This document shows, in pieces, positions 986 through 58,472 of a DNA stretch of 64,000 bases. This stretch comes from Sulfurospirillum sp. (lineage in GTDB: Bacteria; Campylobacterota; Campylobacteria; Campylobacterales; QNZT01). A program made the translations under genes and the position numbers. The stretch is from positions 45,338 through 109,337 of the forward strand of contig JANTGR010000001.1 in the NCBI GenBank assembly GCA_024762875.1. The letters are read 5' to 3'. Below the pieces are notes generated by a model. That model did not search any database. It saw nothing but the letters and a program-made list of their open reading frames with translations, and was not told the origin of the DNA. Numbering within the stretch: position 1 is the first letter of the stretch; each line of letters starts with the position of its first letter.

Positions 986-2593
986 ATGGAACATCTTTTA
1001 GTCTTATTTTTAGCCACTATTTTGATTGCAACAATTTTAAATGTTTTTTTGAAAAAAGTTGGATTGCCAACGATTATCGGCTATATATTTTCAGGCCTGG
1101 CCATTACTTATATATTTCACCTGCAGGATGTCAATAGCGAATCATTAGAACACATTGCTGAATTTGGTATCGTTTTTTTGATGTTTACTATCGGACTTGA
1201 ATTTTCTATGAATCACTTGAAATCTATGAAAAAAGAAGTCTTTCTTTATGGCTTTTTACAAGTATTTTTATCAGGTGTTGTTTTTACAATTTTGGCTTAT
1301 TTTGTCGCTTCTATGGAGCTAAAAAGCGCTATTGTAGTGGGATTTGCCCTTTCGCTTTCATCAACAGCCATTGTCTTAAAAGTTTTAAATGAAAATAGTG
1401 CCATTCACAGCGGGTACGGGCGTGTGACGCTGGGTGTATTACTCTTTCAGGATTTGGCTGTGATTCCTATATTGTTGATGATTTCTATCTTTACCAACCA
1501 GGATCAGTCTATCAGCTATCTACTTTTCAAGACTATGATTTCGGCAATACTGGTTTTTTTGGTGATCTTTGTCATTGGTAAAATATTTATTGAACGTTTT
1601 TTTGAATGGATTATTCATAGTGACTCAGAAGAGATTTTCTTGATCTCTGTATTGTTGATAGTGGTTGCATCAGCCATGATTGCAGATCTTTTTGGCTTTT
1701 CACTCTCTTTGGGTGCTTTTTTGGCCGGTATGACGATCGCTGAAACGAAGTTTAGATACCGTATTGAAGCAGATCTGGTGCCTTTTCGTGATATCTTGCT
1801 GGGAGTCTTTTTTGTCAGTATCGGGATGCAGATAGATCTGGTGACAGCTTGGGACAATGCCGGTATTATTGCTTTGTTATTGATTGTAGTGATGTTGCTG
1901 AAGGGAGTGATCCTTTTTTCTACCTTGCTGCCGTTTATACAAAAAAGAACAGCGATGAAAACTGCTTTGGCACTTTTTCAAATCGGCGAGTTTTCTCTGG
2001 CTATCTTCTCTTTGGCTTTTAGCAATCATCTCATTGATAAAGGAACGAATCAAACCCTCATTATGGTGGTTGTATTATCGATGATTATAACCCCGTTTGT
2101 TTTAAAAAATATTAAAAAAATCGTTGATCCGCTCTTTGTGGAACCGGAACTCAAAATGGAGTCAATAGAGTCAAGTGGCTATCATGATCATTTGATTATT
2201 TGCGGCTATGGTGATTTGGGACAGAAACTGGCTAAAAAATTTAAACAGCTGCATCTTTATTATGTGATATTGGAACATGATATGAAACTGGTAGAACTGG
2301 GCCGATCAGAGGGACAGCCCATATTGCTTGCAAATGCTGCACAAAAATCTGTCCTGGATGCTGTCAATGTAAATGAGTGTCTTGCTATCATGATAGCGGT
2401 AGACAATGCGAAAAAATTACGCCTTATTTGTGAAAATATCGCTTCATTTGATGCTGATATCAACAGTATAGTTAAAGTACGCAATGCTTCTCATGCAGCT
2501 ATTATCAAAGATTTGCATATCAAACACATTGTGAATCAAAGTGAAGAAATGGCAAAAATTCTGATGAATGAGGCGGTTAAATGTCGGATGTAA
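986..2593 (+). CDS. CPA2 (Kef-type) monovalent cation:proton antiporter with C-terminal KTN/TrkA-N domain
   Basis: 535 aa. The N-terminal ~390 aa are polytopic and hydrophobic (Na+/H+ exchanger type). A Rossmann motif follows (HLIICGYGDLGQKLAKKF, GxGxxG). Confidence 0.85.
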   Translation: MEHLLVLFLATILIATILNVFLKKVGLPTIIGYIFSGLAITYIFHLQDVNSESLEHIAEFGIVFLMFTIGLEFSMNHLKSMKKEVFLYGFLQVFLSGVVFTILAYFVASMELKSAIVVGFALSLSSTAIVLKVLNENSAIHSGYGRVTLGVLLFQDLAVIPILLMISIFTNQDQSISYLLFKTMISAILVFLVIFVIGKIFIERFFEWIIHSDSEEIFLISVLLIVVASAMIADLFGFSLSLGAFLAGMTIAETKFRYRIEADLVPFRDILLGVFFVSIGMQIDLVTAWDNAGIIALLLIVVMLLKGVILFSTLLPFIQKRTAMKTALALFQIGEFSLAIFSLAFSNHLIDKGTNQTLIMVVVLSMIITPFVLKNIKKIVDPLFVEPELKMESIESSGYHDHLIICGYGDLGQKLAKKFKQLHLYYVILEHDMKLVELGRSEGQPILLANAAQKSVLDAVNVNECLAIMIAVDNAKKLRLICENIASFDADINSIVKVRNASHAAIIKDLHIKHIVNQSEEMAKILMNEAVKCRM

Positions 2594-3204
2594 AAAGAAC
2601 ACTGATCTTTGATATGGATGGTACTTTGATTGATTCATCCAAAGTGATAGTCAATTCTATCAATTATGTACGCAGTAAATTAGGTCTGGAAGCGATGGAA
2701 GAAGAAAAAATTTTATTTGCTGTCAATGACATGCAGACAGATTCACCACGTTATTTCTATGAGGTAGAAGCTTTTGAACAGCGGCACATTGTATGGTTTC
2801 AGGAGTATTATACACTTTATCATGATAGGGAAGTTGCTTTGTATCCAGATGTAAAAAGTTTCCTGGATAAAGTTTCACAAAAATACCAGCTCTCTTTGGC
2901 TACGAATGCATACAGAGAATCTGCATTACAGATTTTACAGCATCTGGAGATTGAACATTATTTTGATATTGTAGTGTGTGCTGATGATGTGCAAGCCTCC
3001 AAACCTCATCCTGAAATGATAAAAAAAATTCTATTACATTTTGATGAAATACCAGAAAATGCACTGATGATAGGAGACTCATTAAAAGACAAAGAAGCCG
3101 CAAAAAGAGCAGGGGTTGATACTATTTTGGTGGATTGGGGATTTTCTGATTTGGATGGGGCGTGTAAAGAGGTCAAAACATTGGAAAAATTGTTGGGTGT
3201 ATAA
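2581..3204 (+). CDS. HAD-superfamily hydrolase (phosphoglycolate phosphatase-like)
   Basis: 207 aa. HAD motif I is IFDMDGTLIDS, motif II is LSLATNA, and motif IV is MIGDSLKDKEAAKRAG. It overlaps the upstream gene by 13 nt. Confidence 0.8.
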   Translation: MSDVKRTLIFDMDGTLIDSSKVIVNSINYVRSKLGLEAMEEEKILFAVNDMQTDSPRYFYEVEAFEQRHIVWFQEYYTLYHDREVALYPDVKSFLDKVSQKYQLSLATNAYRESALQILQHLEIEHYFDIVVCADDVQASKPHPEMIKKILLHFDEIPENALMIGDSLKDKEAAKRAGVDTILVDWGFSDLDGACKEVKTLEKLLGV

Positions 3205-4495: not shown

Positions 4496-5772
4496 TATTT
4501 ACTCCTTAATTCTACAAACCATGCAGCCACGGTAGCATAGGCAGGCTGGGCACAGGGTACATGATCGAGTGACGGGCTGATATCTATAGCGGGAACACCC
4601 ATTTTGGCACTTGCAGCAAGTGCCAGACGCGGGTCGATAATAGTATCACCAGAACAGTAATACAACTGTGTCGGTGTTGTTGGCGTATAATCATCTACAC
4701 TGTTGTTAACAAAGTCAACTCTTAATGCATTGTTGGCATTAGTCAGGAAATCACCTCTAAAAGCAGGTACGAAAAAGTCTGCAATTGAGTTGGTTAATTG
4801 TGCCTGGATAAATTCTTTGGTTTTTGTCAAATCTGCTGCATCATATAAAGTAGGCAGTATAGTGTCATACGGCGTAGCCAGGATTTCACTTAAATTATAG
4901 TCATATGTTTTGGCATATGAGTTGATGATACCACCGATAAAGTCTGGTCTTGCCATGCTGTCTTGGCTGACTACACCCATACCGGTCAAGTTCAAATCGT
5001 ACGGTCCGGACATGGGTGCTACGCCCGCGAGGTGGATATCTGGCTGGTTGGCTTCAATCTCTTTAGCTGCCGCCAGTGTCACATAGCCGCCTTCAGAATA
5101 ACCTGTAAGATAGACTTGCCCGTTTAAAGGCAAATTGCTGTCTGTTCCAAATGCAAGTGTCGCTTTGATCATATCAATGACAGGTGAGGCAGACTCTTTT
5201 TCTATAAAGTAGGGATGTGTAGTTGTTTTTGATTCACCATAACCGATCAAATCAGGCTGCACTGTAATGAATCCTGCCACAGCAGAAAAAAGTGTACCTG
5301 TTGCACTGGGCTTGTGCGTCATAATGACTTCTGTAGTAGGAGCCTCGTTATCAGGGAAAATTGTTCCGTGCTGATCACTGACGATAGACATAGAGTAGTC
5401 TTGATGCTTTGCAGCTAAACCCGCAAGTATAGTTTGGCTGGGCACTGGTATGGTAACCAGTCCTGAGACATTGATCTCTTCACCTTTGAGATTGTGTGTT
5501 TTATAGACCATTCTGAAACCTTTGATACCAAAAGCAGGTTGCGGGGGAGTCGATTCATTGACGTCCACAGTGGTGGGATCATCTGCTTTTTGTGTTAAAG
5601 CAGTCACCGTTGGCTGCATCGTGGATGCATTGATGTCAAAAAGCGGTGTCATACTGATCAACTGGGCATCTCCTACAATATTATTGTCTTTGTTGTCAAT
5701 GCCACAGCCGCCAAGCAGCCAAGCTGTCAATGAAACTGTAAACAGCAAACCTGATTTTTTCATTTCTATCAT
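4495..5772 (-). CDS. secreted lipase/esterase-like alpha/beta hydrolase lipoprotein
   Basis: 425 aa. It has a lipobox (AWLLGGC) and a nucleophile elbow (GYSEGG). An AGGAG Shine-Dalgarno lies 5 nt upstream of the ATG at 5772. That ATG is the central ATG of a palindrome copy. Its stop overlaps the fadL-like start by 1 nt. Confidence 0.6.
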   Translation of the reverse strand: MIEMKKSGLLFTVSLTAWLLGGCGIDNKDNNIVGDAQLISMTPLFDINASTMQPTVTALTQKADDPTTVDVNESTPPQPAFGIKGFRMVYKTHNLKGEEINVSGLVTIPVPSQTILAGLAAKHQDYSMSIVSDQHGTIFPDNEAPTTEVIMTHKPSATGTLFSAVAGFITVQPDLIGYGESKTTTHPYFIEKESASPVIDMIKATLAFGTDSNLPLNGQVYLTGYSEGGYVTLAAAKEIEANQPDIHLAGVAPMSGPYDLNLTGMGVVSQDSMARPDFIGGIINSYAKTYDYNLSEILATPYDTILPTLYDAADLTKTKEFIQAQLTNSIADFFVPAFRGDFLTNANNALRVDFVNNSVDDYTPTTPTQLYYCSGDTIIDPRLALAASAKMGVPAIDISPSLDHVPCAQPAYATVAAWFVELRSK

Positions 5773-5852
5773 GATAACTCCTAAAAATTTATATTAAAAA
5801 ATATTATAATGATACAGAAAGCTTCATTAAATCTTTGCTTTACCGATATAAT

Positions 5853-6751: not shown

Positions 6752-8248
6752 TTATATGAAAGTAGGGGCATCATTGGAGAAGAGTATAAGATCTCCACTG
6801 GCTGTATGCTGGCTTAACGTCTCTTCCATGCGTGATTTGTCTTTTAAGAGCAGTTTTTTTGCCTTTTTGATTTCACGGTAGAGTACCTCAGCATTGGTAC
6901 TGCCGGTAATGATCACAGTATCAAAAATGCTGTCCATGATATGAGCAAGTTTGCTGTTACTTGCTTCATCACTTTCGATGATACCTGGAGTGATGAGTAT
7001 CTTGCGTCCTGGAAATTGGCGTACCAGTTCATACGAAGCACGCATCCCCTCAAAGTTTCCATTAAAACTGTCATCAATGATGAGTTTTCCTCCCGCTTCT
7101 ATCTTTTGTAAGCGATGTTCTACCTGTTTTAAGCCTAAGAGTGCTTTTTTGATTTGCGGTATTTCCAGCCCCAGTTCTCTGGCTATCATGATAGCCGCTG
7201 TGAGGTTGATAGCATGAAAGGCACCCAGGAGTGGTGCTTGAAAAGATTCTTCTTTGCCATCGATAGTAAGATCAAAGTGTAAGCCTTCCAATGTTGCTTC
7301 GATATTTGATATATTGTTTCCGTAGAGTGTCACTTTTTCATTTGGTTTGACGTTAGCACTTTCGTGTACAAAAGCTTTTTTGAGTTTGTTGGAATTGAGT
7401 ATTTCCATTTTGGTGTCCCGGATGTTTTGCAGGGTTTTAAAATATTCGATATGCTGGGCACCAATGCTGCCGACGATAGCATAGTCTTCATTTAAAAAAC
7501 GTGCAATTTCATCGATATCACCTCTTGCTCTTGCACCTGCTTCCGCGATATAAATCTGGGTACGCAGCGGGAGTTCTTCGTTGACATCCCGTACCAGCCC
7601 ACCCAGGGTATTGACAGAGCGGGGTGTCATATAGGTTGCAAATTGTGCAGAAAGGATTTGGTAAAGAAAGTTTTTGATACTGGTTTTACCATAGCTGGCT
7701 GTTATAGCGATGATACGCAAATCTTTCATACTGTGGAGCTTTTTTTGTGCCTCTTTTTTAAAACTTAAAAAAAGAAATTTTTCAAACAGATAGCTGGCAC
7801 CCACTGCAGCAACAAGTGGTAAAAAAACACCATCAAGCTGACAGCGCTGACTGACCAGGCAGAGAATATCCTGAAAAATAACGGCCAATGCCAAAAAGAG
7901 AAAAAAGCGTTTGACACGGGGTGTGTAAACCAATTTTTTATCGATCTTTTTTTGCCATAGATATAAAGCTGGCAATAGCCCCAGATAAAAATAGACCCAA
8001 AAATAAAGACCCATTTCAAAATGAAACATCATATAATAGGCAAAAAGCGGCACAACAAAATAAAAAATATGCCACTGCACTTTTTTGTGTTTGAAAAGTA
8101 CCCGTTCGAGTTTATAACTGTACCATTGCAGATTGGTAATAAGATACCAGCCCAGGGTGAGGGTAAAGAGTATATGTGAAAAGAGAGTCAATAATTTAAT
8201 GCTTTGCATGAAGTTCCTTATAAATTTGCTCTTGTATAAAAGCAGCAT
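6752..8248 (-). CDS. murF: UDP-N-acetylmuramoyl-tripeptide--D-alanyl-D-alanine ligase with N-terminal membrane domain
   Basis: It has a Mur-ligase central domain (IAITASYGKTSIKN) and a C-terminal domain (LIIDDSFNGNFEGM). The first ~165 aa are hydrophobic TM segments. An alternative start exists at 8209 (MQSIKLL). Confidence 0.85.
   Translation of the reverse strand: MLLLYKSKFIRNFMQSIKLLTLFSHILFTLTLGWYLITNLQWYSYKLERVLFKHKKVQWHIFYFVVPLFAYYMMFHFEMGLYFWVYFYLGLLPALYLWQKKIDKKLVYTPRVKRFFLFLALAVIFQDILCLVSQRCQLDGVFLPLVAAVGASYLFEKFLFLSFKKEAQKKLHSMKDLRIIAITASYGKTSIKNFLYQILSAQFATYMTPRSVNTLGGLVRDVNEELPLRTQIYIAEAGARARGDIDEIARFLNEDYAIVGSIGAQHIEYFKTLQNIRDTKMEILNSNKLKKAFVHESANVKPNEKVTLYGNNISNIEATLEGLHFDLTIDGKEESFQAPLLGAFHAINLTAAIMIARELGLEIPQIKKALLGLKQVEHRLQKIEAGGKLIIDDSFNGNFEGMRASYELVRQFPGRKILITPGIIESDEASNSKLAHIMDSIFDTVIITGSTNAEVLYREIKKAKKLLLKDKSRMEETLSQHTASGDLILFSNDAPTFI
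7181..7196. repeat. copy of the iterated palindrome extended to a 16-bp perfect palindrome GGCTATCATGATAGCC (inside murF)
   Basis: Read directly from the sequence. On the minus strand it encodes AAIMIAR in MurF. Confidence 0.9.
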
Positions 8249-8924
8249 GTTTTAAAAAAAAGTAGTGATCGCCCTCCAATGGGAAAAAAGAGTTCTCAGG
8301 TATCAATGCAGCTATCTTCTCACCTGTAAAAAGCGGTGTGGCACTGTCATCTTTTCCCCAAAAGAGTAAAGCTTTTTTTTGAAAATGGCTAAAATGCGCT
8401 GAAAAGTCTTCATCTACGACATTTTTGAATGTTTTATACATCGCTTCACTCATACCTTCAACATCTTTGGAAACAAAAAAACGGCGTAAGCTGCTGATAC
8501 CAAAAGGTTTCAAGAGTTTAAAAAGTTTGATTTTTGCTCGTACTTTAAATGACTTGGGTACTATAATACCGGCAGAACTGAGCAAGACCAGCAGATCCGG
8601 ATTGAGCAGGGTGGCAACTTTGCCGCCAAAGGAGTGCCCAAATACGACAGCAGGCTGCACATCCAGCTCTTCTAAAAATTGTATCATGATAGCGGCATAA
8701 TCATGGGTGGTCAATACCGTCTCGTTTGGACTTTTACCAAAGCCCGGCATATCAATATAGAGATGCCTGTGATCTTTAAAATAGTTGCCAAAAGCACTTT
8801 TCATGACTTCTTTGTTACTGCCCCAGCCATGCAGGATGATGATAGTTTCTTCTATCTTTGGATGTATAATCTCATAGTTGATATTGTAGGATATGCCCTG
8901 ATATAGTATCTGCCTGTTTGCCAT
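8196..8924 (-). CDS. alpha/beta-fold hydrolase
   Basis: 242 aa. It has an HG oxyanion motif (ILHGWGS) and a nucleophile elbow (GHSFGG). Confidence 0.75.
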   Translation of the reverse strand: MANRQILYQGISYNINYEIIHPKIEETIIILHGWGSNKEVMKSAFGNYFKDHRHLYIDMPGFGKSPNETVLTTHDYAAIMIQFLEELDVQPAVVFGHSFGGKVATLLNPDLLVLLSSAGIIVPKSFKVRAKIKLFKLLKPFGISSLRRFFVSKDVEGMSEAMYKTFKNVVDEDFSAHFSHFQKKALLFWGKDDSATPLFTGEKIAALIPENSFFPLEGDHYFFLKHAAFIQEQIYKELHAKH

Positions 8925-16198: not shown

Positions 16199-16232
16199 TG
16201 TCATGATAGCTGTAACTATACTATCATGATAG
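16199..16232. repeat. pair of iterated-palindrome copies in an intergenic spacer
   Basis: TgTCATGATA at 16199-16208 matches 9 of 10 positions. CTATCATGATAG at 16221-16232 is a perfect 12-bp palindrome. The centre-to-centre spacing is 23 bp. Confidence 0.85.
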
Positions 16233-16498: not shown

Positions 16499-18511
16499 AT
16501 GAAAAAATCGCTATTGATTGAAATTGGCGTGGAAGAGCTTCCTGCAATTCCTTTTTTAAAAGAGCTTCCCAGCATAGAGACAAAATGGCAGGCAATATTA
16601 CAGGTATATGCGCTAGAGAGTGATTTTGACTTTTTTTATACTCCCAGAAGACTCTTGTTTTGGCATCGTGAATTTCCTCTCAAGCAGGCAGATACCCTGC
16701 AGGAGTTTTTTGGTGCACCTCTGGATATAGCTTATAAAGAAGGTAAACCCACACCCGCTGCTTTGGGTTTTGCCAAAAAATGCGGTGTATCTATAGATGC
16801 CATCAGTCAAACAGAAAAAAATGGCAAAACAGTGCTTTATTTTCAAAAAGAAGAAGCAGGGCAGGAAGCCCGAAAATTGTTGCCTGACATGATAAGCGAT
16901 TTGCTGGAAAAACTACACTTTGGCAAGTCCATGCGATGGGGAGATGAAAATAAGCATTTTATCAGACCGATTCGTTTTATCGGCTGTATGCTTGATAATG
17001 AGGTGATTGATTTTTCACTATACGGTGTCAAAAGTGACAACAAAAGTTATGGGCATAGAACCATTACCTATGATCCTTTCACTTATACAAGCAGCGGTGA
17101 CTATTTTTGTAAGCTGGACAAAGCGGGCGTCATACTCTATCCCAAAGAACGGGAAAAGATGATCCTGTCACAATTTGAATCTATTGAAAAGGCACATCCT
17201 TACAAGATAGAGATTGATGCCGATTTATTGGCTGAAGTTGTAGCAATCACTGAACATCCATATGCGCTGCTTGGCAGTTTTGACAAAAAGTTTTTAGATC
17301 TGCCGCCTGAAGTAATCATCACTTCCATGAAAGAGCATCAGCGTTATTTTGCTGTTTTTGAAAATGGTAAACTGACCAATAAATTTATTGTTGTTTCCAA
17401 TGCTATTACTGATGATTACAGTGAAATCATCAAAGGAAATGAAAAAGTTTTACATGCTAGATTAAGTGATGGTCTTTTCTTTTATGAAAATGATTTGAAA
17501 GCAGGTTTACAGACAGAAGGCTTGAAAAATATCACTTTTATGCAAGGTGCCGGCACGGTTTATGACAAGACGCTACGAGAAGTCGAAATCGCCAACTACT
17601 TAAATGAATCAGTCGGTGAAGACAAAGCACTTTTAGTCAAGTCTGTCTTATTGACCAAAGCCGATTTACTGACAGACATGGTATATGAGTTTACAGAGTT
17701 GCAGGGGCTGATGGGTTACTACTATGCGCAGGCTGCAGGAGAAGATGAACGCCTTTGCAGAGCACTGAAAGAGCAGTACCTCCCGGATGGAGAAGAGTCT
17801 GATCTGCCTTCGAGTGATTTTTCGGCGATAGTAGCTATGAGTCATAAACTTGACTCTATATTGACACTCTTTAATATCGGTCAGATTCCAACAGGTACAA
17901 AAGATCCTTTTGCCTTGAGAAGGGCAGCAATCGGTATCATTAAAATCGTGCTGGATCGCGGATTTGCCTTTGATATCAAAAAAGATTTGGCATCCCTCTC
18001 TGTCACGTATGAAAATATCGATCTTGCTTTGGTTGAAAACTTTTTTCTTGAAAGAATCAACCAGTATTTTTCTGTCAATGCTTCTGTCATACAGGCAGTA
18101 TTGCAGACAGGAGAGCGTGATATCTGTGAAATAGCCGCCAAGATAGAAGCTTTGGATAAAATGGTCAATGAAGACAATTTCAAAACGTATATGTCCACTT
18201 TTAAAAGGGTAGCCAATATCATTAAAGATATGGATATTGATGGATCTGTCATGATAGAGGAGAGTTTGTTAAGTCTGGATGCTGAAAAAGAACTGTTTAC
18301 AGTGTATTCGAATGTATCGGACAATGAAGAGAAATGTTATCATGATAGATTGGTGAAACTTTTTTCTCTGAAACCACAGATTGATCAATTTTTTGACAAT
18401 GTGATGGTGAATGTTGATGATGAGAAAATCAAGCAAAATCGTAAAAATCTGATCTTGGCTATTTATCTTGCTTTTAGGGATGTGGCAGATATCAAGGAAA
18501 TCACGATTTAG
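16499..18511 (+). CDS. glyS: glycine--tRNA ligase beta subunit
   Basis: About 670 aa. The N-terminus KSLLIEIGVEELP and overall length are typical of GlyS. The ATG at 16499 directly follows the TTG at 16496 used by the ORF track. Confidence 0.95.
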   Translation: MKKSLLIEIGVEELPAIPFLKELPSIETKWQAILQVYALESDFDFFYTPRRLLFWHREFPLKQADTLQEFFGAPLDIAYKEGKPTPAALGFAKKCGVSIDAISQTEKNGKTVLYFQKEEAGQEARKLLPDMISDLLEKLHFGKSMRWGDENKHFIRPIRFIGCMLDNEVIDFSLYGVKSDNKSYGHRTITYDPFTYTSSGDYFCKLDKAGVILYPKEREKMILSQFESIEKAHPYKIEIDADLLAEVVAITEHPYALLGSFDKKFLDLPPEVIITSMKEHQRYFAVFENGKLTNKFIVVSNAITDDYSEIIKGNEKVLHARLSDGLFFYENDLKAGLQTEGLKNITFMQGAGTVYDKTLREVEIANYLNESVGEDKALLVKSVLLTKADLLTDMVYEFTELQGLMGYYYAQAAGEDERLCRALKEQYLPDGEESDLPSSDFSAIVAMSHKLDSILTLFNIGQIPTGTKDPFALRRAAIGIIKIVLDRGFAFDIKKDLASLSVTYENIDLALVENFFLERINQYFSVNASVIQAVLQTGERDICEIAAKIEALDKMVNEDNFKTYMSTFKRVANIIKDMDIDGSVMIEESLLSLDAEKELFTVYSNVSDNEEKCYHDRLVKLFSLKPQIDQFFDNVMVNVDDEKIKQNRKNLILAIYLAFRDVADIKEITI

Positions 18512-25480: not shown

Positions 25481-25487
25481 TTCTATC

Positions 25488-25919
25488 ATGATAATGAAAT
25501 TTTTATTGCTACTTTTGACAACCTCCCTTTTGGGGGAGGTTTACAGTGTCAATAACTTCGAGAGTGACATCTTTTCACGTAACGGTAATAAACTGAAAAA
25601 AGTGGCGATGAGCCTCAGGATAGAAGGACGGGATTTAAAAGAGAATGATTATAAAATTACAGATGCTCTGAATATCATCATCAGCAGTTTTTATATGGAA
25701 GACTTGTTTACCTCCCAGGGGAAGGAACGGTTTAAAACCTCCCTTTCAAAATATCTTGAAAAAAAATACAGCGTAGAAGCTGATACTATCTATCTACAAA
25801 AATTCAAACTATCACAGGCCTCTACTGATGTAGATGAACTTATCGCTGCATTAAAAGCCGAGGGATGTTGTCATAAAGAAAATAGCGTCAAAAAAGCCTT
25901 TGCTCCAATTAGTGAATAA
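25488..25919 (+). CDS. FliL-like periplasmic protein (tentative)
   Basis: 143 aa. It has a signal peptide. The segment NGNKLKKVAMSLRIEGRDLKENDYKITDALNIIISSF...TIYLQKFKL follows the FliL-family pattern. The start is 25488 or 25494. The first ATG is the centre of a palindrome copy. Confidence 0.4.
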   Translation: MIMKFLLLLLTTSLLGEVYSVNNFESDIFSRNGNKLKKVAMSLRIEGRDLKENDYKITDALNIIISSFYMEDLFTSQGKERFKTSLSKYLEKKYSVEADTIYLQKFKLSQASTDVDELIAALKAEGCCHKENSVKKAFAPISE

Positions 25920-35132: not shown

Positions 35133-35146
35133 TTTATCATGATAAA
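35133..35146. repeat. copy of the iterated palindrome (14-bp TTTATCATGATAAA), 9 bp upstream of the rmuC start
   Basis: Read directly from the sequence. It is identical to the 14-mer at 915-928. Confidence 0.9.
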
Positions 35147-35324: not shown

Positions 35325-36017
35325 CTAAAATGGCCAGACACTTTTTATGACTTTTGAGCCCCAGGGCTGTTTTGTTGCTTCTTGGATGTCATCTTCATTG
35401 AGATAAAGAATCTTTGCATCTGCTATGTATTTTGAATTGATTGTATTGTATTGATCGATATCATTGGAGCGGATAACGCCAGTTACTTGTACAATCTGTT
35501 TAGAGTCATTGATAAATATTTCTCTTCGACCCGCTATGAAATAATTACCGTTATGCAGTATCTTTATCACACGTGCGGTGATAGTCGTATTAAATTTTTC
35601 ATTTCTTGAGGCAGCACCGGTACCTGAAAAGGTATTGTTTGAATTGGTTTTAAAGCTCATATCTGTCAAACCATTGAGGTTTTTGAGAACCCCTCCTCCA
35701 AATACGCCGCCACCAAGGTTATTTTGTGACAAATCGGATATTTTTTTATTTCCAACTGATGACTGTGTCGCACTTTCATTGATAACGACAGTCACAATAT
35801 CATTGACATGCATAGCTTTATTATCTGAAAATATAGGGTTTTGCCCTCTTCCATACACACTGCCTTCATGTGCATAACATTTTTTATTGGCTGTAGTTGA
35901 TGGGTATTGCACATAATTAGGCGGTGTCATATCTATTTGTGGTGAAGCTGTATGGGCACTGCAGCCATTGAATATGATGATCATGCCTATCATGATAAAT
36001 GTTTTTATATATGTCAA
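35325..36017 (-). CDS. flgH: flagellar basal-body L-ring protein FlgH
   Basis: 230 aa. It has a lipobox (IIFNGCS) and FlgH-type sequence (GSVYGRGQNPIFSDNKAMHVNDIVTVVINE, ITARVIKILHNGNYFIAG). Confidence 0.9.
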   Translation of the reverse strand: MTYIKTFIMIGMIIIFNGCSAHTASPQIDMTPPNYVQYPSTTANKKCYAHEGSVYGRGQNPIFSDNKAMHVNDIVTVVINESATQSSVGNKKISDLSQNNLGGGVFGGGVLKNLNGLTDMSFKTNSNNTFSGTGAASRNEKFNTTITARVIKILHNGNYFIAGRREIFINDSKQIVQVTGVIRSNDIDQYNTINSKYIADAKILYLNEDDIQEATKQPWGSKVIKSVWPF

Positions 36018-37774: not shown

Positions 37775-39979
37775 CTATATATCTTGTTCTACTATTTCTT
37801 CAAAAGTATTAAAATAAACTTTTTTGAGTTGATTTAAATCTTTTTTCACATCATTACAGATAAATTGTGTATCACTGCTGACTTTACCGATTCTATCTAT
37901 CATGATATGCTGTTCTTTGGCAAATGCTTCAAAAGCATCTGTATCTTCCACTTCAACAATAGCGCGTGAAAAGCTCTCTGAAAAGATATCCCTTTCATCT
38001 TCAACACGTATACCGCAGGCTGCAGATTTCCCACCAAGTACAGCCATTTTGGCTAAAGCTATGACGATACCGCCAACATTGACATCTTTGGCAGATTGTA
38101 AGAGTCCTTTTTGATTGGCTTCGATCACAAAATCCCACAACTTTAACTCTTTGTCCAAATCAATAGGGGCCAAAGTACCTTCCACTTTGTCAAAAAGCTC
38201 TTTCATGTATAGACTTCCACCAAAGTGATGACCGCTTTCACCTATGAGATAAAGAGCATTGCCCTCTTTTTGAAAAGAAGAAAAAAGTATGTTGTTTTGA
38301 TCTTCATTGACACCAACCATAGCGATTGCAGGTGTTGGGAAAACACCGACACCGTCAGTTTCATTGTAGAGTGAAACATTGCCACTGACTACAGGGGTAT
38401 GCAGCGCCTTACATGCTTCTTTAATACCTTCACATCCTTGTGCAAACTGCCACATGGTTTCAGGTTTTTCAGGATTACCGTAATTGAGACAATCTGTGAT
38501 TGCCAACGGCCTTGATCCTGTCATGGCTACATTTCTGCCACTCTCCATGACTGCAGCACTGGCACCACCCTGTGGATCGATATAACAATAACGCGGATTA
38601 CAGTCACTACTCATGGCAATGGCACGATTGGTCTCTTTTACACGCACCACACTGGCATCCAGACTACCGGGACCTTTTATAGAATTTGTTTGTACCATAG
38701 AATCATATTGTTTGTATATCCATGCTTTATTGACAACTTCTGCTGATGAAAATAATGTGTCAAAGGCACTGTTATTATCAACTTTTTCAAAATCGTCAAT
38801 TGTTGTATCTTTGATTTTATCCAAATAATCAGGTCGTTTGGTTGGACGATCAAGGATAGGTGCTTCTTCTGTGATAGGATCAATCGGCATATCTGCAACT
38901 TTTTCGTTATGCCAAAAAAGTTCCATATTTCCTGTATCAGTTACTTCTCCTATAATTGCCGCATCTAAATCCCATTTTTCAAAGATTTCAACAATCTTGT
39001 CTTCATATCCTTTTTTTGCACAAATCAGCATACGCTCTTGTGATTCAGAGAGCATAAAGTCGTATGGTGTCATATTTTCTTCACGCGCAGGCACTTGGTC
39101 AAGATGCATGATCATACCTGATCCACTTCTGCCCGCCATCTCAAATGAACTTGAAGTCAGTCCTGCTGCACCCATATCTTGGATACCGACGACATAGTCA
39201 TGTTGAAAAAGTTCCAAACAGGCTTCAAGTAATAATTTTTCAGCAAAAGGGTCACCTACCTGTACTGTAGGCCGCAGTGATTTACTCTCTTCTGTAAAAC
39301 TGTCACTACTCATCACAGCTCCACCTAGTCCATCTCGTCCGGTTTTACTACCGACATAGATGACAGGGTTTCCTACGCCTTCTGCTTTACCATAAAATAT
39401 TTCATCACTTTTACAGGTACCAAGAGTAAATGCATTGACAAGAATATTACCGTTATAAGCATCATCAAAAAAAGTTTCACCACCAATGGTCGGTACACCC
39501 ATACAGTTTCCATAGTCACCAATACCGGCTACAACACCACGTACCAGGTACCGTTGATGTCTTCCTATATCATCATCACGGGTGATATTGCCAAAACGCA
39601 GTGCATTCATATTGGCAATGGGTCTGGCACCCATGGTAAAGACATCTCGCAGTATCCCCCCTACTCCTGTTGCAGCACCCTGGTAAGGTTCTATAAACGA
39701 AGGATGGTTATGTGATTCCATTTTAAACACCGCAGCCATACCATCTCCGATATCTATGACACCGGCATTTTCACCAGGTCCCTGTATCACCCAGGGGGCA
39801 GATGTAGGGAAACCGTTAAGATATTTTTTACTAGATTTATAGGAGCAGTGTTCACTCCACATAGCAGAGAAAATACCGATTTCTAAAAGATTGGGCTCAC
39901 GCCCCAAGATAGTTTTAATATGTTCATAATCCAGCAGTGAAAGTTTGTGTGCATTTAATATCTCTTCGATATTTTCCAT
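37775..39979 (-). CDS. purL: phosphoribosylformylglycinamidine synthase subunit PurL
   Basis: 734 aa. It has PurL (small-type) AIR-synthase-like repeats and the motif ESHNHPS. Confidence 0.95.
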
Positions 39980-40075: not shown

Positions 40076-40822
40076 TTAGGCTGTTTCTGTCAGAGGTACA
40101 TAAAGTTTATATCCAATCCCATAGATACTCTCTATACAGTCAACTGGCAGTTTTTTTCTCAATTTGGAAACCAGGGAGCGAATATTGTCTTTTGAGAGTA
40201 CTATCTCTTCATATTCAAAATGGTGTATAATTTCATCGTTGGTACAAATTTTATTGATATTTTTAGAAAGAAGTTTCATAAATACCAGCTCATTTTTGGT
40301 CAATTTCAGTAAATTTCCTGCGTGAAAAAATGCATTTTTTTCGATATCAAAATAGCTTTCATGACTAAAATTAAGTCGATTATTTTCTATCTCCATCTGA
40401 TAGTTGTTATTGATTTTTTTAGTGACTTTATACAAGATATTCAGCATATTATCATGATCAATCGGCTTGGTGATAAATTGTTCAATACCTATATTGATCA
40501 GTGTCAGCAGGTACTCTGATTCATGATGGGCAGAGAGGACGACAATGGGCTGTGCGGGATTGATCTTATAAATTTCTTTAACAAGCGAAATTCCATCCAT
40601 CTCCGGCATCTTGATATCGGTAATAACCAAATCAAAATAAGCATTGTTTTTATCATGATAGGCTTTGTATTGTTTGAGACCTTCTTTGCCGTCTACGGCC
40701 CCTTCACAATACTCAAAATAATTATCTAATATTTCGATTGTATTTTCACGCAGTTCTGCATAATCTTCAACAAAGAGCATATTTAAATTTTTTGTTTCTT
40801 CATACAATAATTGGTAGCTCAT
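40076..40822 (-). CDS. OmpR-family two-component response regulator (REC + winged-helix)
   Basis: The REC domain reads LFVEDYAELRE...DLVITDIKMPEMDG...ITKPI. The C-terminal Trans_reg_C-like region reads LTKNELVFMKLL...VSKLRKKL...IESIYGIGYKL. Confidence 0.85.
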   Translation of the reverse strand: MSYQLLYEETKNLNMLFVEDYAELRENTIEILDNYFEYCEGAVDGKEGLKQYKAYHDKNNAYFDLVITDIKMPEMDGISLVKEIYKINPAQPIVVLSAHHESEYLLTLINIGIEQFITKPIDHDNMLNILYKVTKKINNNYQMEIENNRLNFSHESYFDIEKNAFFHAGNLLKLTKNELVFMKLLSKNINKICTNDEIIHHFEYEEIVLSKDNIRSLVSKLRKKLPVDCIESIYGIGYKLYVPLTETA

Positions 40823-41471: not shown

Positions 41472-43682
41472 TTAAACTTTTTCTATGAATCCCAATTCGA
41501 TTTTATTGCCTTTTTGACCCAAAATCTTTACTTTAACCTTATCATCAATATTGACAATATCTGTCACTTTCTCTACACGGTCATCAGAGAGTTTTGAGAT
41601 ATGCAGCAATCCATCCACACCTCCTGGCAACTCTACAAAAGCACCAAAATCAACAATACGTTTTACAAGTCCGTCAAAAACTTGTCCCTCTTTAAACACA
41701 GGTGTCGGTTTTTTGTCTCTTTTTTGTTCATTTCTGGCAGCTGCTACTTCTCGTATATGATCACATGCTGCTTCTACTTTGGCATTATTTTCACCTTCTA
41801 CCTTCACTTTGCCGCTGTCACGATCCAGGTCAATTGATACTTCAAACTTTTCTATGATTTCTTTGATGTTTTTGCCGGCTTGTCCGATGATAGCACCAAA
41901 GGTTGAAGGATCCAGCGAAAAGATAGACTGAGATGGCAGCACTTCTTCATTTAAGACGATGGCATCACTTGCTTTTTCCATGATGTCCAGGATATGATCA
42001 CGTGCTTCACTGGCTTGGTAGATTGCTTCTTTCAGTGTCTGCTGGTCGATACCTCCGAGTTTGATATCCATCTGTAATGCTGTGATACCATCTCTTGTCC
42101 CGGCTATCTTAAAGTCCATATCACCATCATGATCTTCAAGTCCCATAATATCTGTTAAAATAGCATATTGATCCTCTTCCACTACCAATCCCATTGCGAC
42201 ACCAGCAACCAGCTTTTCCACATCCAAATCTGCCGCTTTCAAGGCCAGAGAACCGCCACAGACTGTTGCCATAGAAGAGGAACCATTAGACTCCAAAATT
42301 TCTGATACAAGACGTACTGTTTCACTTTTATCCAAGTTGATAGAAGGTTCGATAGCACGTTTTGCCAAGTTGCCATGTCCCAGTTCCCGTCTGCCTGGAG
42401 CTCTTAGCATGGAGGCTTCACCCACAGAAAAACCAGGAAAATTATAATGTACCATGAAATTTTCATACTGTGTCTCTTTTGCAGTCAACAGATCATACTG
42501 CTGTGCATCTTTTGCATTACCTAAGGTCAAAGCAACCAGTGCCTGTGTCTGCCCTCTGGTAAAGAGGCATGAACTATGAACAGATGGGAGAATATTTGTC
42601 TCGATGCTGATATCTCTTACATCTTTAAGTCCTCTGCCGTCTGCTCGTTTGCCTTCACGCAATATCATCGAACGTACCAGCCCTTTTTTATATTTGTTAA
42701 CCATATTTTCGATGAGTGTAAAATCCCAGTTTTCTTTGATTGCTGTATCATCGAGCATGATCTCTTTGGAAATTTTGGCCAGTTCACCTGCTCTTTCACT
42801 TTTCGCCATCTGTTGGATTGCGGCTACAATCTTATCATGATAGAACTCTTGTATATAGGTTAGAAGGTTACTGTCTTCCTTGCTCTGGGTGAAGCTTAAA
42901 ACTGCATCTTCTTTTTTATAAGGCGTAAACCCTTCTTCGTAAGCCAAAGAAGCTACTTTGATAGCTTCACCCGCAAAAGACAAAGCTTCTAAAACTTCAT
43001 CATTGCCAAGTTCATTCATCTTGTGTACAGAGATGATATTTTCACCCATACCTGTGGACATCATAGGATCGATATCCACAACAGAAACGACTTCATTTTC
43101 TTCTGTAGCATTGACTTTCATCTCTATCATCAAAAGTTCATCTTTGGTACCTGCTACAAACAGGTCCAAGGTACTCTCTTCCAGGGCAGACTGGCTTGGA
43201 TTGATGATCAGTTGATCATCAACTTTTCCAATACGCACACCACATACATTTTTATTGACAGGAATATCAGAGAGGAAAAGTGCGGCAGATGCTGCATTGA
43301 TAGCCATTGTTTGTAAATCTACATCACTATCTGCACTCATGACCATGATTGTTATCTGTGTCGGATAGGTATAGCCTTTTGGAAAAAGCGGTCTTAAACT
43401 TCGATCAACAATACGGGATGTTAATGTTTCAAAGTCACCCGGTCGATTCTCTCTTTTGATAAAACCGCCTGGTATTTTACCTACGGCATAGGCTTTTTCA
43501 ACATATTGGACAGTCAAAGGAAGAAAATCTTCTTCACTGGGTTTTTCATCATAGGCAACTGTTGCCAAAACGACAGCTTTGCCATTTCTCAGCATCACTG
43601 CACCACTTGCCTGTTTGGCTACTTTGTCTATCTCATAGATCTCTATTTTATTATTGACTTCTACTTTTACACTACAACTCAT
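41472..43682 (-). CDS. pnp: polyribonucleotide nucleotidyltransferase (PNPase)
   Basis: It has two RNase PH domains, a KH domain ([11 protein letters not shown]) and an S1 domain ([20 protein letters not shown]). The start is at 43682 (MSCSVKVEV), with GGAGAAAG upstream. Confidence 0.95.
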
Positions 43683-50731: not shown

Positions 50732-51646
50732 TTAGTGAAAAATCTTTATGATAGCAGTGAGAGATTTTATCTTATCATGATAATGTTTGGCAACATCGAA
50801 TGTAAAATGATCAAACACGGAAACAGCAAAAGGATTTGTTTGATGATAATAAGCAATGTAGATATGATCTTTGGTATAAGAAACAGCCACCGCTTTGTTT
50901 TGAAGCGGTATCAGTTGCTGTAGTGTGGTATCATTTATATCCCCATACAGTGTCCATCCCTGCACTTTTTTGCTTCTAGTGCTATCAGCAAAGAATGCCT
51001 GCATCACCAGATTGTTTTTAGCAACCAGCTGTGAGAGTTTTTCACTTACCACTATACCTTCATGGTGATTGCTGCGAGAAATAGTGACAATAAAACCATC
51101 AAAAACATTTTGGTTAAAACGTTCTACCGCTGCATTTTCTTTGGTACTGAAAAGCAAATGTACATAGGCAAATGAAGCATTATCAGCCTGATAAATATCA
51201 TCAGATTGCAACACTTTGATTGATGGTGCAAAAAGATGAGTATGGCTTAATTGCTCTTTGCTAAGTTTATTGTCTGTATAGTGAAAGCCCTCTGTTTCCG
51301 TAATGGGGGAAATAATCTTTTTTTTATAGAGGGTTTCATAAGCCACAATATTTGGAGCGGAATTTCGAAGTGTCAGATAACCCGCTGCTATCATGACAAG
51401 GGCTACAATCACACCGGTAAGTTTAAAAAATTTGGCAAAAAGAATAAAGATAAAAAGTGCAGCTACGCCTGAGACGATATAAGCGGTTTTTCTTTTTGCT
51501 GCAGCTTCTTTGACATTTTGCAGTGCAGTATAGGCTGGCTGCAGTGTTTGTTGATAGAGCTGATTGAGTTCAGGTTCAGAGGCAGTGCCTTGTAGTGGTG
51601 CGAACATGAAGGTAAACAACAGAAAAGTTTTGAGAAAATATTGCAT
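50732..51646 (-). CDS. hypothetical membrane protein (possibly DUF3137-like)
   Basis: 304 aa. It has a signal-like N-terminus and two adjacent TM helices (aa ~55-95), followed by a soluble domain. The family assignment is from memory only. Confidence 0.45.
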   Translation of the reverse strand: MQYFLKTFLLFTFMFAPLQGTASEPELNQLYQQTLQPAYTALQNVKEAAAKRKTAYIVSGVAALFIFILFAKFFKLTGVIVALVMIAAGYLTLRNSAPNIVAYETLYKKKIISPITETEGFHYTDNKLSKEQLSHTHLFAPSIKVLQSDDIYQADNASFAYVHLLFSTKENAAVERFNQNVFDGFIVTISRSNHHEGIVVSEKLSQLVAKNNLVMQAFFADSTRSKKVQGWTLYGDINDTTLQQLIPLQNKAVAVSYTKDHIYIAYYHQTNPFAVSVFDHFTFDVAKHYHDKIKSLTAIIKIFH

Positions 51647-51701: not shown

Positions 51702-53240
51702 TTATTCCCACTCTATGGTTCCTGGCGGTTTAGATGTGATATCATAGACAACGCGATTGATACCATCCACTTCATTGATGATACGGCTGGAGATGGTATC
51801 AAGCAGATCATGCGGCAAATGTGCAAATGTAGCCGTCATACCATCAACACTTTCCACCATCCGTACACAAACAGTATTGTCATAGGTACGGTTATCACCC
51901 ATAACGCCGACACTTTTAACATTGAGCAAAACACAAAATGCCTGCCATACTTTATCATAATAGCCATTGGATTTCAAAACATCTATCATGATAGTATCTG
52001 CTTTTCGAAGCAGCGACAAATCAGGCTGATTGACTTCTCCCATGATGCGGATCGCCAGACCAGGTCCTGGGAAAGGGTGACGACCAATCATATCTTTGGG
52101 TAATCCCAGCTCAAGTCCCAGTTTTCGCACTTCATCTTTAAATATTTCTCTGAGCGGTTCAATCAGTTCAAACTGCATCCAATCCGGAAGACCACCGACA
52201 TTGTGATGGGATTTAATCGTTTTACTTGGCCCTTTGACAGAGACAGATTCTATGACATCAGTGTAGAGTGTGCCTTGTGCCAAAAAAGAGATCCCATCAT
52301 GCCTTTGTGCCTCTTTGTCAAAAACTTCAATGAAAGTTTCGCCAATGATTTTACGTTTTTTCTCCGGATCAGTTACACCGGCCAATTTAGAGATAAACTC
52401 TTCCGATGCATCGACAGTGATAAGCTCTGCACCAACACGATTTTTAAACATCGCTTCGACCTGTGCCCTTTCATTGGCCCTCAGCAGTCCCTGATCTACA
52501 AAAACCGGTACGAGCTGATCACCGATTGCCTCATGTAAAAGCGTTGCAACAACAGAACTGTCCACACCGCCGCTGACACCGCAGAGAACTTTTTTGTCTC
52601 CGACTTTTTCTTTGATCTTTTGAATCTGCTCTTTGGCAAATGAACCCATATTCCAGGTAGATTCACAGCCGCATATTTTTTTAGCAAAATTTTTCAGTAA
52701 AATAGTGCCAAATTCAGAATGATAGACTTCCGGATGAAACTGAAATGCATAAATTTCTGCTTCCGTACTTTTAATAGCAGCATAGGGTGAATTGTCAGAG
52801 TATCCTACCCGGATAAAATTTTCAGGCAGCATATCCACAAGGTCCCCATGACTCATCCAGACAGTTTGACCATCTGGTGTATCATCAAAAAGATGACAGG
52901 TGTCTTCAAAATGCAGCTGTGCTTTGCCATATTCATGATGGTCAGCAGGGATAACCACACCACCAAAGTGCTGTGTAAGAAGCTGCATGCCATAACATAT
53001 GCCAAGGATAGGAAGGCCAAGTTCAAATATGGCATTGTCAGGATGATAGGCATTTTTATCATACACAGATGCAGGTCCGCCTGAAAGGATGATTCCTTGA
53101 GGCTGTTTTTCTTTGATAGTCTCTATTTTTTCATTATAAGGGAGGATTTCACAGTAGATACCGCTTTCTCTGAGTTTTCTGGCAATAAGCTGTGTATATT
53201 GCGATCCAAAATCTAATACGATGATGGGGACATTTTTCAT
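51702..53240 (-). CDS. guaA: glutamine-hydrolysing GMP synthase
   Basis: 512 aa. It has a GATase domain (GICYGMQ), the ATP-PPase P-loop motif SGGVDSSV, and a C-terminus ending in PPGTIEWE. Confidence 0.95.
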
Positions 53241-56688: not shown

Positions 56689-58472
56689 CATTAGAAAAGA
56701 AGATACAGCAGCTGCCGCCCCTGCCCGGTGTGTACCAATATTTTGATGCGAATGATAAATTACTCTATATCGGTAAAGCAAAAATTTTGAAAAACCGTGT
56801 AAAAAGTTATTTTAGATTTCAGCCGCAATTCTCCCCTGCTCCCAATCTCTCACCCCGTATCGCTATCATGATAGGTGAAACAGTACGATTGGAATATATC
56901 GTAGTAGAGAGTGAACATGATGCCTTGATTTTAGAAAATTCTCTCATAAAGCAGCTGCGGCCGAAGTATAATATCCTGCTGCGTGATGATAAAACCTATC
57001 CTTACATTTATATCGATTTAAACGATGCTTTTCCCCGTTTTGAAATTACCCGTAAAGTCCTTAAAGGCAAACAGATAAAATATTTTGGTCCTTTTTCCCA
57101 GTCTGCCAGAGAGATAGTGGATTCACTTTATGACATTTTTCCACTTGTGCAGAAAAAATCCTGTCTGAAAGGTAAAAAGCTCTGTCTTTTTTATCAAATC
57201 AAAAAGTGTTTGGGACCCTGTGAAGGTAAAGTGAGTGAAGCAGTCTATAAAAAAATGGTGGATGAAGCGATGCATCTGCTTTACAATAAAAAGGCACTGC
57301 AGCAGAAGCTGGAGAAAAAAATGCTTTTTTATGCTGAAAATCTTTTATTTGAAGAAGCCAGCCGTCTGCGGGATCGCATCAATAAGATAAAAGCGAGTCA
57401 GAGTATCTCTCACATCGATTTGGCAAAACTCGCGGATTATGATATTTTTGCTATTGAAACTGCCAAAAACAGTGCCTGTGGAGTACGGCTTTTTATCCGT
57501 GACGGAAAGGTTGTTTCCAGTGCACACTCTCTTTTTAAATCAGATACAGGGTTTGACCGTGATGAACTCTACAAAAGGCTTTTACTGGAGTATTATCATC
57601 AGGAATTACCGATGGTTAAAAATATATTGGTGTATGAAGATTTTGATGAAAAAGAGAGTCTTCAGAATTTGCTCAGTGATCGTTTTGGCAAGTCTATCAT
57701 GATAAACATTCCCCAAAAAGGTGAAAAAAAACATTTAGTCAACTTGGCACATACCAATGCAAAAGAGATTTTACGGACAGGGAAAAACCAGGACAATACA
57801 ATCTTGTCAGAACTTAAAACACTGTTTAATTTAGATAAAACACCTTTTGTCATAGAAGGATATGACAACTCACATTTACAGGGCGAAGCGACTGTAGGAG
57901 CGATGATAAAATGGGAAAACGGTTTTTGTAAAAAAGCGTACAGGCACTACAATCTCAGTGCACGTGACGAGTATGCCCAGATGAAAGAGATGCTTGAACG
58001 CCGTTGTGAAAGTTTTGATAAAAATCCTCCACCTGATTTGATGGTGATCGATGGTGGAGAAACACTGTTGAAATTGGCGATTAAAATAGTTAAACAAAGT
58101 GGTGCTAATGTCGATATAGTTGCAATTGCAAAAGAGAAGCGGGAAAACAAGGCGCAAAGAGCCAAAGGAAAAGCAAATGACATCCTTTGCAGCAAAGAAG
58201 GAATCCTGAAATTATCACATGATGATAAAAGGCTGCAGTTTCTGCAAACGATACGAGATGAATCACACCGTTTTGTGATTGCATTTCATCGTAAGCAAAA
58301 ACGCAAAGCAGATAAAGAGATTTCATTATTGGCTAAAAAAGGTGTGGGCGAAGCCACTGTCAAAAAACTTTTGCAATATTTTGATACATTTGGCAATATT
58401 GAAAATGCAAGCTTTGAAGAATTGGAAAAGGTTGTTGGCACAAAAATTGCTTTAAATATTCAAAATATTTAA
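56685..58472 (+). CDS. uvrC: excinuclease ABC subunit C
   Basis: 595 aa. It has a GIY-YIG domain (PGVYQYFDANDKLLYIGKAKILKNRVKSY), a UVR domain, an RNase H-like endonuclease domain, and a C-terminal (HhH)2 motif. Confidence 0.95.
   Translation: MTLEKKIQQLPPLPGVYQYFDANDKLLYIGKAKILKNRVKSYFRFQPQFSPAPNLSPRIAIMIGETVRLEYIVVESEHDALILENSLIKQLRPKYNILLRDDKTYPYIYIDLNDAFPRFEITRKVLKGKQIKYFGPFSQSAREIVDSLYDIFPLVQKKSCLKGKKLCLFYQIKKCLGPCEGKVSEAVYKKMVDEAMHLLYNKKALQQKLEKKMLFYAENLLFEEASRLRDRINKIKASQSISHIDLAKLADYDIFAIETAKNSACGVRLFIRDGKVVSSAHSLFKSDTGFDRDELYKRLLLEYYHQELPMVKNILVYEDFDEKESLQNLLSDRFGKSIMINIPQKGEKKHLVNLAHTNAKEILRTGKNQDNTILSELKTLFNLDKTPFVIEGYDNSHLQGEATVGAMIKWENGFCKKAYRHYNLSARDEYAQMKEMLERRCESFDKNPPPDLMVIDGGETLLKLAIKIVKQSGANVDIVAIAKEKRENKAQRAKGKANDILCSKEGILKLSHDDKRLQFLQTIRDESHRFVIAFHRKQKRKADKEISLLAKKGVGEATVKKLLQYFDTFGNIENASFEELEKVVGTKIALNIQNI

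Follow-up and report, generated by a model that had tools for sequence, protein, structure and literature searches.

The stretch of DNA analysed here, referred to below as the window, is 64,000 nucleotides long and comes from a genome labelled Sulfurospirillum sp. (Campylobacterota, Campylobacterales; assembly GCA_024762875.1, contig JANTGR010000001.1, positions 45,338 to 109,337 of the forward strand). Scattered through its genes and spacers are 25 copies of a single 10-base word, TATCATGATA, and the proteins encoded across these copies share two short peptides, I-M-I and Y-H-D followed by K or R. In 100 dinucleotide-preserving shuffles of the window the word occurred 0.12 times on average and never more than once, an excess of about 200-fold; within coding DNA the excess is 68-fold by codon shuffle. 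The word is by a wide margin the most frequent 10-mer of the window, and its core ATCATGAT is the most frequent 8-mer. C or T precedes the word and A or G follows it in 47 of the 50 half-sites, and the true unit is therefore the 12-bp sequence YTATCATGATAR, a perfect palindrome with its flanks included. Beyond one base on either side nothing is conserved among the 25 copies, and their spacing looks near random.

Nine of the copies are read as x-I-M-I-x and eight as Y-H-D-K/R, two lie on start codons and six are intergenic, giving a genic share of 17-19 out of 25. Intergenic DNA carries 1.3 copies per kb (six in 4.7 kb), about four times the density of coding DNA (about 0.3 per kb). The copies are listed below, with the peptide read from each coding copy and, where noted, their occurrence in relatives (genomes A to E, identified further on).

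2386..2395, Kef-type antiporter (TrkA_N domain), read A-I-M-I-A
2818..2827, HAD hydrolase, read Y-H-D-R, in a cap-domain region that is variable in PDB homologues
7184..7193, MurF, minus-strand reading A-I-M-I-A
8682..8691, alpha/beta hydrolase, read A-I-M-I-Q, the sole copy preceded by G instead of C or T
18338..18347, GlyS beta subunit, read Y-H-D-R
28185..28194, N-terminus of LpxD, read Y-H-D-K
33437..33446, MnmE, read Y-H-D-K, copy common to genomes B and D
34404..34413, RmuC, minus-strand reading Y-H-D-R, present in D and one base off in B
35988..35997, FlgH signal peptide, read F-I-M-I-G, common to B and D
37898..37907, PurL, read H-I-M-I-D, present in D and not in B
40651..40660, response regulator, read Y-H-D-K, present in B and not in D
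42833..42842, PNPase, read Y-H-D-K, private to the window's genome
49044..49053, PurD, read G-I-M-I-V, common to A, B and D; a sister genome has AATCATCAGA
50773..50782, hypothetical protein, read Y-H-D-K, private to the window's genome; relatives have Y-A-K-S and Y-A-R-M
51984..51993, GuaA, read T-I-M-I-D, common to A, B and D
56864..56873, UvrC residues 61-63, read A-I-M-I-G, private to the window's genome
57695..57704, UvrC residues 338-340, read S-I-M-I-N, same DNA in A, B and C
5767..5776, start-codon copy, its ATG being the first in-frame start of a lipase-like open reading frame (4495-5772, minus strand)
25484..25493, start-codon copy, its ATG being the start of a FliL-like gene (25488-25919)
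917..926, intergenic, between divergent genes
16222..16231, intergenic, upstream of glyS
35135..35144, intergenic, 10 nt upstream of the RmuC start codon, private to the window's genome
40053..40062, intergenic, between purL and the response-regulator gene, private to the window's genome
63315..63345, minus strand, intergenic pair (63317 and 63334) forming a hairpin with a 14-bp stem and a 3-nt loop, followed by a T-run

Placement on the map of open reading frames agrees with the initial annotation, made from the sequence alone, which had quoted the nine I-M-I and eight Y-H-D-(K/R) coding copies with their peptides correctly. Its gene names were upheld by Pfam scans, gene lists of relatives and PDB matches, and its coordinates are right throughout except for PurL (37898 instead of 37908) and the first UvrC copy (56864 instead of 56874). 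It had argued that only two frames are open to coding copies; this is correct, since the third, TA-TCA-TGA-TA, bears a stop on both strands and is thereby barred within genes. Relatives use this third frame exactly at gene ends, where the word supplies a TGA stop and an overlapping ATG start. The two open frames had also been described as about equally used, which is true of the window (nine against eight) but not of the relatives' loci, where the I-M-I frame is about three times commoner. Likewise, Y-H-D is followed by K or R in the window, but in relatives also by S, N, M, I or T. The lysine after Y-H-D is encoded by AAG in eight of ten copies (window 28185, 33437, 42833 and 50773; loci L085, L087 and L129), although AAA makes up 84% of lysine codons, and the arginine by AGG in three of six, though AGA makes up 80% of AGR codons. 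A 14-bp extension with C at -2 and G at +2, prompted by the AAG lysines, was ruled out, as C is not seen at -2 and intergenic copies lack G at +2.

The word belongs to a roughly genus-level clade of uncultured Campylobacterales, made up of recent metagenome-assembled genomes. By its PurL the window falls within Campylobacterota. Among the GTDB representatives listed, the best matches to PurL are 72-76% identical and come from metagenome-assembled genomes labelled Sulfurospirillum, Campylobacterales, Sulfurimonadaceae and Nitratiruptor. No member of the clade is among the matches listed, and these 23 PurL-matched Campylobacterota loci (L001-L023) were used as an outgroup panel, whose synteny is too weak for orthologues other than PurL and MnmE; their 288 kb hold 0 copies of the word. 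Homologue searches with UvrC, PNPase and GlyS each gave about 17-23 closely grouped proteins (68-84% identity) and then a drop in identity, and loci syntenic with the window were fetched from five genomes of this group. Word densities are as follows.

Window, 0.39 per kb
Genome A (GCA_054040595.1), 0.62 per kb
Genome B (GCA_054041865.1), 0.48 per kb
Genome C (GCA_054019895.1), 0.62 per kb
Genome D (JGI 3300045637), 0.54 per kb
Genome E (GCA_054020755.1), 0.73 per kb

The flanks of the relatives' copies are likewise mostly Y...R. GCA_054040575.1, the nearest sister, is partly syntenic and has a PNPase 72% identical; the 22 kb of its locus L089 contain 0 words and no other iterated 10-mer. With six word-bearing genomes and a word-free sister, the word is thus a trait of one clade. 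An apparent exception, locus L008, with no words and a seemingly clade-type UvrC and PNPase, proved to be a different record; the clade contig has 10 words in 13.8 kb.

Copies of the word were also encountered on other contigs. The metagenome contigs L146, L225, L154, L172, L136 and L226 (36-41% G+C) carry dispersed, Y...R-flanked copies at 0.5-1.5 per kb and probably come from the clade or its close kin, some being denser than the window. Two viral contigs from IMG/VR, L107 (443-2147) and L111 (520-2207), contain 14 copies each of TATCATGATA in about 2 kb at 27-30% G+C. The flanks of these copies are not Y...R, and the clusters look like iterons or operators for a palindrome-binding protein, not like a genome-wide phenomenon. 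Tandem arrays with periods of about 171, 23 and 36 bp (L109 9552-11255, L121 14-3921, L214 7-208, L248 4-82 and L229 62-606), on viral or metagenome contigs of other composition, have nothing to do with the dispersed copies. The possibility of phages with the word throughout their genomes was rejected, the viral cases of two words within 30 nt being chance pairs, tandem repeats or the 2-kb clusters with other flanks.

Both peptides are over-represented in the open reading frames of the window (19,862 codons), with expectations taken from amino-acid frequencies.

I-M-I, 11 observed, 3.2 expected (3.4-fold)
Y-H-D, 11 observed, 1.0 expected (11-fold)
Y-H-D-(K/R), 8 observed, 0.12 expected

Y-H-D is encoded by TAT CAT GAT in 11 of 11 cases, and I-M-I by ATC ATG ATA, after a T-ending codon, in nine of 11. 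The 17 coding words compare with 3.4 +/- 1.5 when synonymous codons are resampled with the proteins kept (maximum 9 in 2,000 trials) and with 0.25 when codon order is shuffled within genes. From these two null models, about 13-fold of the excess lies in the amino-acid sequence and about 5-fold in codon choice. Codon choice at the sites, which the initial annotation had singled out for comparison, is thus bent about five-fold towards the word, with the Y-H-D codons invariant. These counts bear on the notion that the peptides themselves are selected as functional motifs, the word being merely their preferred codons. It is extremely improbable: proteins kept as they are would yield 3.4 words, not 17, the near-invariant codons include the non-preferred ATA, the preceding base is almost always C or T, and the word is found not only in two coding frames but also between genes and at start and stop codons.

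Comparison of orthologues points in the same direction. In alignments of UvrC, PNPase and GlyS (120 sequences each), I-M-I and Y-H-D together occur 81 times in 60 clade proteins against 8 times in 300 outgroup orthologues. Fifteen of the 17 coding sites were checked, all except those in the alpha/beta hydrolase and the response regulator; FlgH was assessed by in-clade comparison only. At UvrC 338-340, I-M-I is found in 20 of 20 clade proteins and in no outgroup protein, M occurring in exactly those 20, while outgroups have [IVT]-x-I. At UvrC 61-63, orthologues have K-M-I (K in 93 and M in all 120), and I instead of K appears only in three clade members; here the DNA of relatives reads GCC AAA ATG ATT TTT (A-K-M-I-F) and that of the window GCT ATC ATG ATA GGT, a mix of synonymous and non-synonymous substitutions. 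A third UvrC site, 257-259, has I-M-I in 14 clade members and not in the window. The GlyS column is Y-x-[DE]-[RK]-L, with Y in 118 of 120 and R/K and L conserved, whereas H, present in 20 of 120, is nearly confined to the clade. PNPase has Y-K-D-[ADE] elsewhere, with H in two of 120 and the word in none of 16 other clade proteins; as the segment around this site has no PDB match, the column was taken from the homologue alignment.

The remaining sites were placed by PDB homologues and by orthologous loci. Four GuaA orthologues in the PDB (E. coli, Coxiella, Neisseria and one more) have I-F-I or I-F-M. The MurF column reads A-A-L in E. coli, A-A-A in P. aeruginosa and V-A-F in Acinetobacter, and that of LpxD L-H-G-D in E. 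coli and F-Q-G-N in Chlamydia. Within the clade, LpxD carries the word in genome A (TAT CAT GAT, as in the window), and genome B has TTACCACGGTGA (TAC CAC GGT). The antiporter strand is hydrophobic in PDB homologues (L-L-V-I-A, W-L-I-L-T, A-I-L-A-L, V-L-I-N-A), the position of M being taken by V, I or L. For MnmE the outgroup loci show Y-A-S-S, I-K-E and V-E-G, and for PurL 70 orthologous loci show G-[LIV]-x-x-x, with I-M-I in none. The RmuC site is an indel-rich loop after the conserved SLxAYERY, with D in three of 151 sequences (150 representatives compared). The sites in PurL, MnmE, RmuC, the HAD hydrolase and the hypothetical protein all fall in variable regions.

The initial annotation had stated that its claim would fail if the peptides were conserved in orthologues lacking the word; conservation of the full peptide was observed at 0 of the 15 sites examined, and the claim survives. 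Y, D, M and I are singly conserved at several sites, and G-[IL]-M-[IL] of PurD is kept across bacteria and in PDB orthologues up to human, as a functional motif might be, yet the full peptide is missing from outgroup orthologues at 14 of 15 tested sites. PurD itself is the near exception, in which the peptide nearly pre-existed and conservative and synonymous changes sufficed. The peptide-motif explanation is refuted by the orthologue columns together with the intergenic copies. The initial annotation had further proposed that protein sequence is bent to carry the word. The bending is real, but it is mostly mild, and the word falls mainly on positions that already matched in part or are variable. 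One or two residues usually pre-existed (K-M-I in UvrC, I-F-I in GuaA, Y-K-D in PNPase, Y-x-D/E-R/K in GlyS) and the rest changed only in the clade. Conserved residues did give way, the K of UvrC to I, the F of GuaA to M and the K of PNPase to H.

That the DNA word and not the peptide is maintained, as first proposed from its presence in two frames and in spacers and now supported by lineage-specific columns and null models, is therefore regarded as highly likely. The explanation as a whole, in which I-M-I and Y-H-D-(K/R) are by-products of the hyper-abundant palindrome YTATCATGATAR maintained in this clade, is considered likely. Coding constraint limits the word within genes, hence its confinement to two frames, to start and stop codons and to variable regions, and its higher density between genes.

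Copies once formed outlast neighbouring sequence by far, though losses and private gains occur. In four comparisons, whose counts are not independent of phylogeny, 4/5, 7/13, 2/3 and 6/9 word copies are identical in relatives (54-80%), whereas random 10-mers of the window are identical in a relative in 6.6-7.6% of cases, at about 73% nucleotide identity. Site frequency within the clade ranges from fixed (UvrC 338, 20/20) to singleton (PNPase, 1/17). Five copies (35135, 40053, 42833, 50773 and 56864) are private to the window, and some copies in relatives correspond to window sequences that differ from the word at one or two bases: the one-off variants at 16311, 18247, 28457, 31817 and 51389 (TGTCATGATA, TATCATGATC, TATCATGACA) align with perfect copies in relatives. 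This could reflect loss in the window lineage or gain in the others. New copies arise by substitution, both synonymous and non-synonymous, at part-matching sites or in variable protein regions.

This mode of origin bears on the idea that a tiny mobile element, such as a repetitive extragenic palindrome (REP), a miniature inverted-repeat transposable element (MITE) or a target-site footprint, gave rise to the copies as remnants or insertions. A short, many-copy palindrome enriched between genes has something of that appearance. However, conservation ends one base on either side, coding copies are in frame and length-neutral within well-aligned conserved proteins, and the orthologous positions of relatives differ by substitution and not by insertion. 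With no flanking similarity the word is not a mobile insert, and such an origin is scarcely credible. Elements of REP or MITE type proper, which are extragenic, at least 20-40 bp long and have conserved flanks or terminal repeats, were rejected on the genic location of 17-19 of the 25 copies and the lack of flank conservation.

Persistence about nine times above background would also be expected of a selected binding site, recognised by a dimeric chromosomal protein in nucleoid organisation, segregation or replication, with selection acting on each site and without drive. A perfect 12-bp palindrome suits a dimeric DNA binder, and the operator- or iteron-like clusters of TATCATGATA on the viral contigs L107 and L111 make it plausible that word-binding proteins exist. 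Conservation of the highly iterated palindrome HIP1 of cyanobacteria was read likewise by Xu et al. (PMC5861425). Many copies of the present word are nonetheless private to one genome, their positions turn over, and the near-random look of the spacing among the 25 window copies also speaks against such a site. The number of sites, about 1,000 per genome, is moreover far above the architectural sets that are generally known (parS, matS, SBS and NBS). A binding site of this kind is on balance unlikely. A reading as a transcription-factor site was rejected on anatomy, and a Chi-type recombination hotspot, being an asymmetric word co-oriented with replication, was rejected because a palindrome has no orientation. 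The GC skew of the window changes sign with the gene strand, positive at about 9-34 kb and 56-63 kb (plus) and negative at about 34-56 kb (minus). It is probably a transcription- or replication-linked asymmetry, and for the same want of orientation cannot relate to the word.

At gene boundaries the word serves as part of the punctuation of genes (L081 21735 and 9463, L083 9460 and 19923, L085 11595, window 5767 and 25484). In locus L081 (21735-21744) a GAPDH gene ends on the word's TGA and the OvoA-like gene that follows begins on its overlapping ATG, and elsewhere in relatives a FAD-binding protein gene is called as beginning at the word's ATG. In the window, the ATG of the FliL-like gene is also called as start in relatives, while the lipase-like frame might truly begin at a second ATG, three codons further downstream. 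The hairpin at 63315-63345 (-17.1 kcal/mol, z = -3.5) looks like the terminator of the gene at 63356-63991, and its copy at 63317 is common to four genomes. L083 (16568-16600) and L085 (9321-9351) show the same pairing at the orthologous position, and L250 (12624-12651) has such a pair too; in these few loci the paired copies sit 7-13 nt apart directly after a gene end, with a spacer that is itself palindromic in L083 and L085. The half-word TATCAT resembles a -10 element on both strands, with five of six matches to TATAAT (for example at 63293-63365 and 917), and intergenic copies could serve as weak bidirectional promoter elements.

With regard to the force that maintains the word, a neutral mutational or repair bias would leave it functionless, for instance through a methyltransferase for CATG or TCATGA with a Vsr-like nuclease that converts near-matches. 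Both sequences are nested in the word and are typical type II sites, just as GATC and CGATCG are nested in HIP1 (PMC4390886), and gain of one enzyme would suit the restriction to a single clade. One-mismatch variants of the word, of which there are 21 against about 4.4 expected, are in roughly five-fold excess, mainly at outer positions, as conversion would predict. CATG as such, in contrast, stands at its compositional expectation (232 observed, about 220-260 expected), the private gains took four to six substitutions per 12 bp, and no such enzyme is found among the window's open reading frames scanned by Pfam. By what is generally known of Vsr, moreover, very-short-patch repair fixes one position and cannot set all 12, the Y/R flanks included. 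A bias of this type is accordingly judged improbable.

Since the anatomy of the word matches that of uptake sequences and of HIP1, preferential uptake or recombination of word-bearing DNA is tentatively favoured as the force, by analogy. The cell's handling of DNA would then be biased towards the word, most plausibly through a preference for word-bearing DNA during uptake or recombination in natural transformation, and recognition might proceed via methylation of the nested CATG or TCATGA. Such a bias would spread word-improving mutations as a molecular drive, as in the uptake signal sequences (USS) of Pasteurellaceae and the DNA uptake sequences (DUS) of Neisseriaceae. A more specific form, in which YTATCATGATAR would mark self DNA for natural transformation as a palindromic tag, recognised either by a dimeric receptor or via CATG/TCATGA methylation, is possible but doubtful.

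Several points weigh against preferential uptake. Neither the window nor the relatives' fetched loci pointed to any protein as the reader of the word. Pfam scans of 30 open reading frames of the window gave no DNA methyltransferase, nuclease, restriction or competence gene, and the gene lists of the relatives' fetched loci show no DNA methyltransferase, nuclease or competence gene. To our knowledge every characterised uptake sequence is asymmetric, whereas YTATCATGATAR is a perfect palindrome. Uptake presupposes competence, and the hosts are uncultured. Persistence of copies fits binding-site selection equally well as drive, and the dependence of the conservation counts on phylogeny has to be borne in mind here. 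Finally, of the six genomes that of the window is least dense in words and has several decayed copies, and maintenance may be uneven across the clade.

The word offers a clean natural case in which a constraint acting on DNA, and not protein function, shapes proteins, with codon choice fixed across dozens of housekeeping genes. The imprinted peptides caution against taking short conserved motifs as functional. As the boundary of the clade is sharp, with a word-free sister, comparison of gene content across it could reveal the reader of the word; what reads such words has been an open question for about 30 years for HIP1, and also concerns the USS receptor of Pasteurellaceae. In practical terms, the word provides a sensitive means of binning these genomes and of detecting DNA transferred recently. 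The occurrence of a palindromic word in a phylum with methylation-guided uptake suggests that iterated palindromes and uptake sequences may be two sides of one phenomenon. If it were indeed a self-recognition tag, this would be the first uptake-sequence-like system outside Pasteurellaceae and Neisseriaceae, and a mechanistic link among USS/DUS, the methylated RAATTY of Campylobacter and cyanobacterial HIP1.

In a literature search the word was not found described as a genomic repeat, nor was any uptake sequence or iterated palindrome found described in Epsilonproteobacteria. A related system in the same phylum is that of C. jejuni, which according to a statement cited in PMC10046745 takes up only DNA bearing the methylated RAATTY motif. 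There, a short palindromic motif marks self DNA, a role that would apply to the present word by analogy. RAATTY is a common hexamer that requires no enrichment and has no visible effect on the proteome, whereas the present word is a rare 12-mer enriched about 200-fold.

HIP1 (GCGATCGC) resembles the word in being a palindrome with a short core symmetrically extended, and the excess of the word is within the HIP1 range of 15-300 (PMC4390886, PMC5861425). Both occur inside and between genes, are conserved above background and contain nested palindromes suited to type II methyltransferases. Copies of HIP1 are conserved between genomes (PMC5861425), and methylated HIP1 has been reported to enhance transformation by as much as 100-fold (preprint 10.1101/2024.09.10.611283). 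The present word differs in its AT-rich sequence, its length (10-12 bp against 8), its phylum and its restriction to a genus-level clade, where HIP1 extends over most of a phylum. A cognate methyltransferase, in the HIP class often an orphan one, was found neither in the window nor in the relatives' fetched loci, though CATG and TCATGA are nested in the word.

The word also resembles USS and DUS in many respects. They too are short exact words, found on both strands at about 0.4-1 per kb, which related species of a single lineage have in common and neighbouring lineages lack. They too occupy permissive coding frames, raise the encoded tripeptides, fall on poorly conserved or compatible residues, are denser between genes and form terminator-like hairpins when paired. 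USS and DUS roughly double their encoded tripeptides, prefer poorly conserved sites and occur as paired terminators (Findlay and Redfield 2009, PMC2817400), whereas the excess found here is 3.4-fold for I-M-I and 11-fold for Y-H-D. USS and DUS are asymmetric and the present word is palindromic, and its host is a clade of uncultured Campylobacterales. Bending of the proteome by a DNA word is established for USS and DUS, while this word and this lineage are new.

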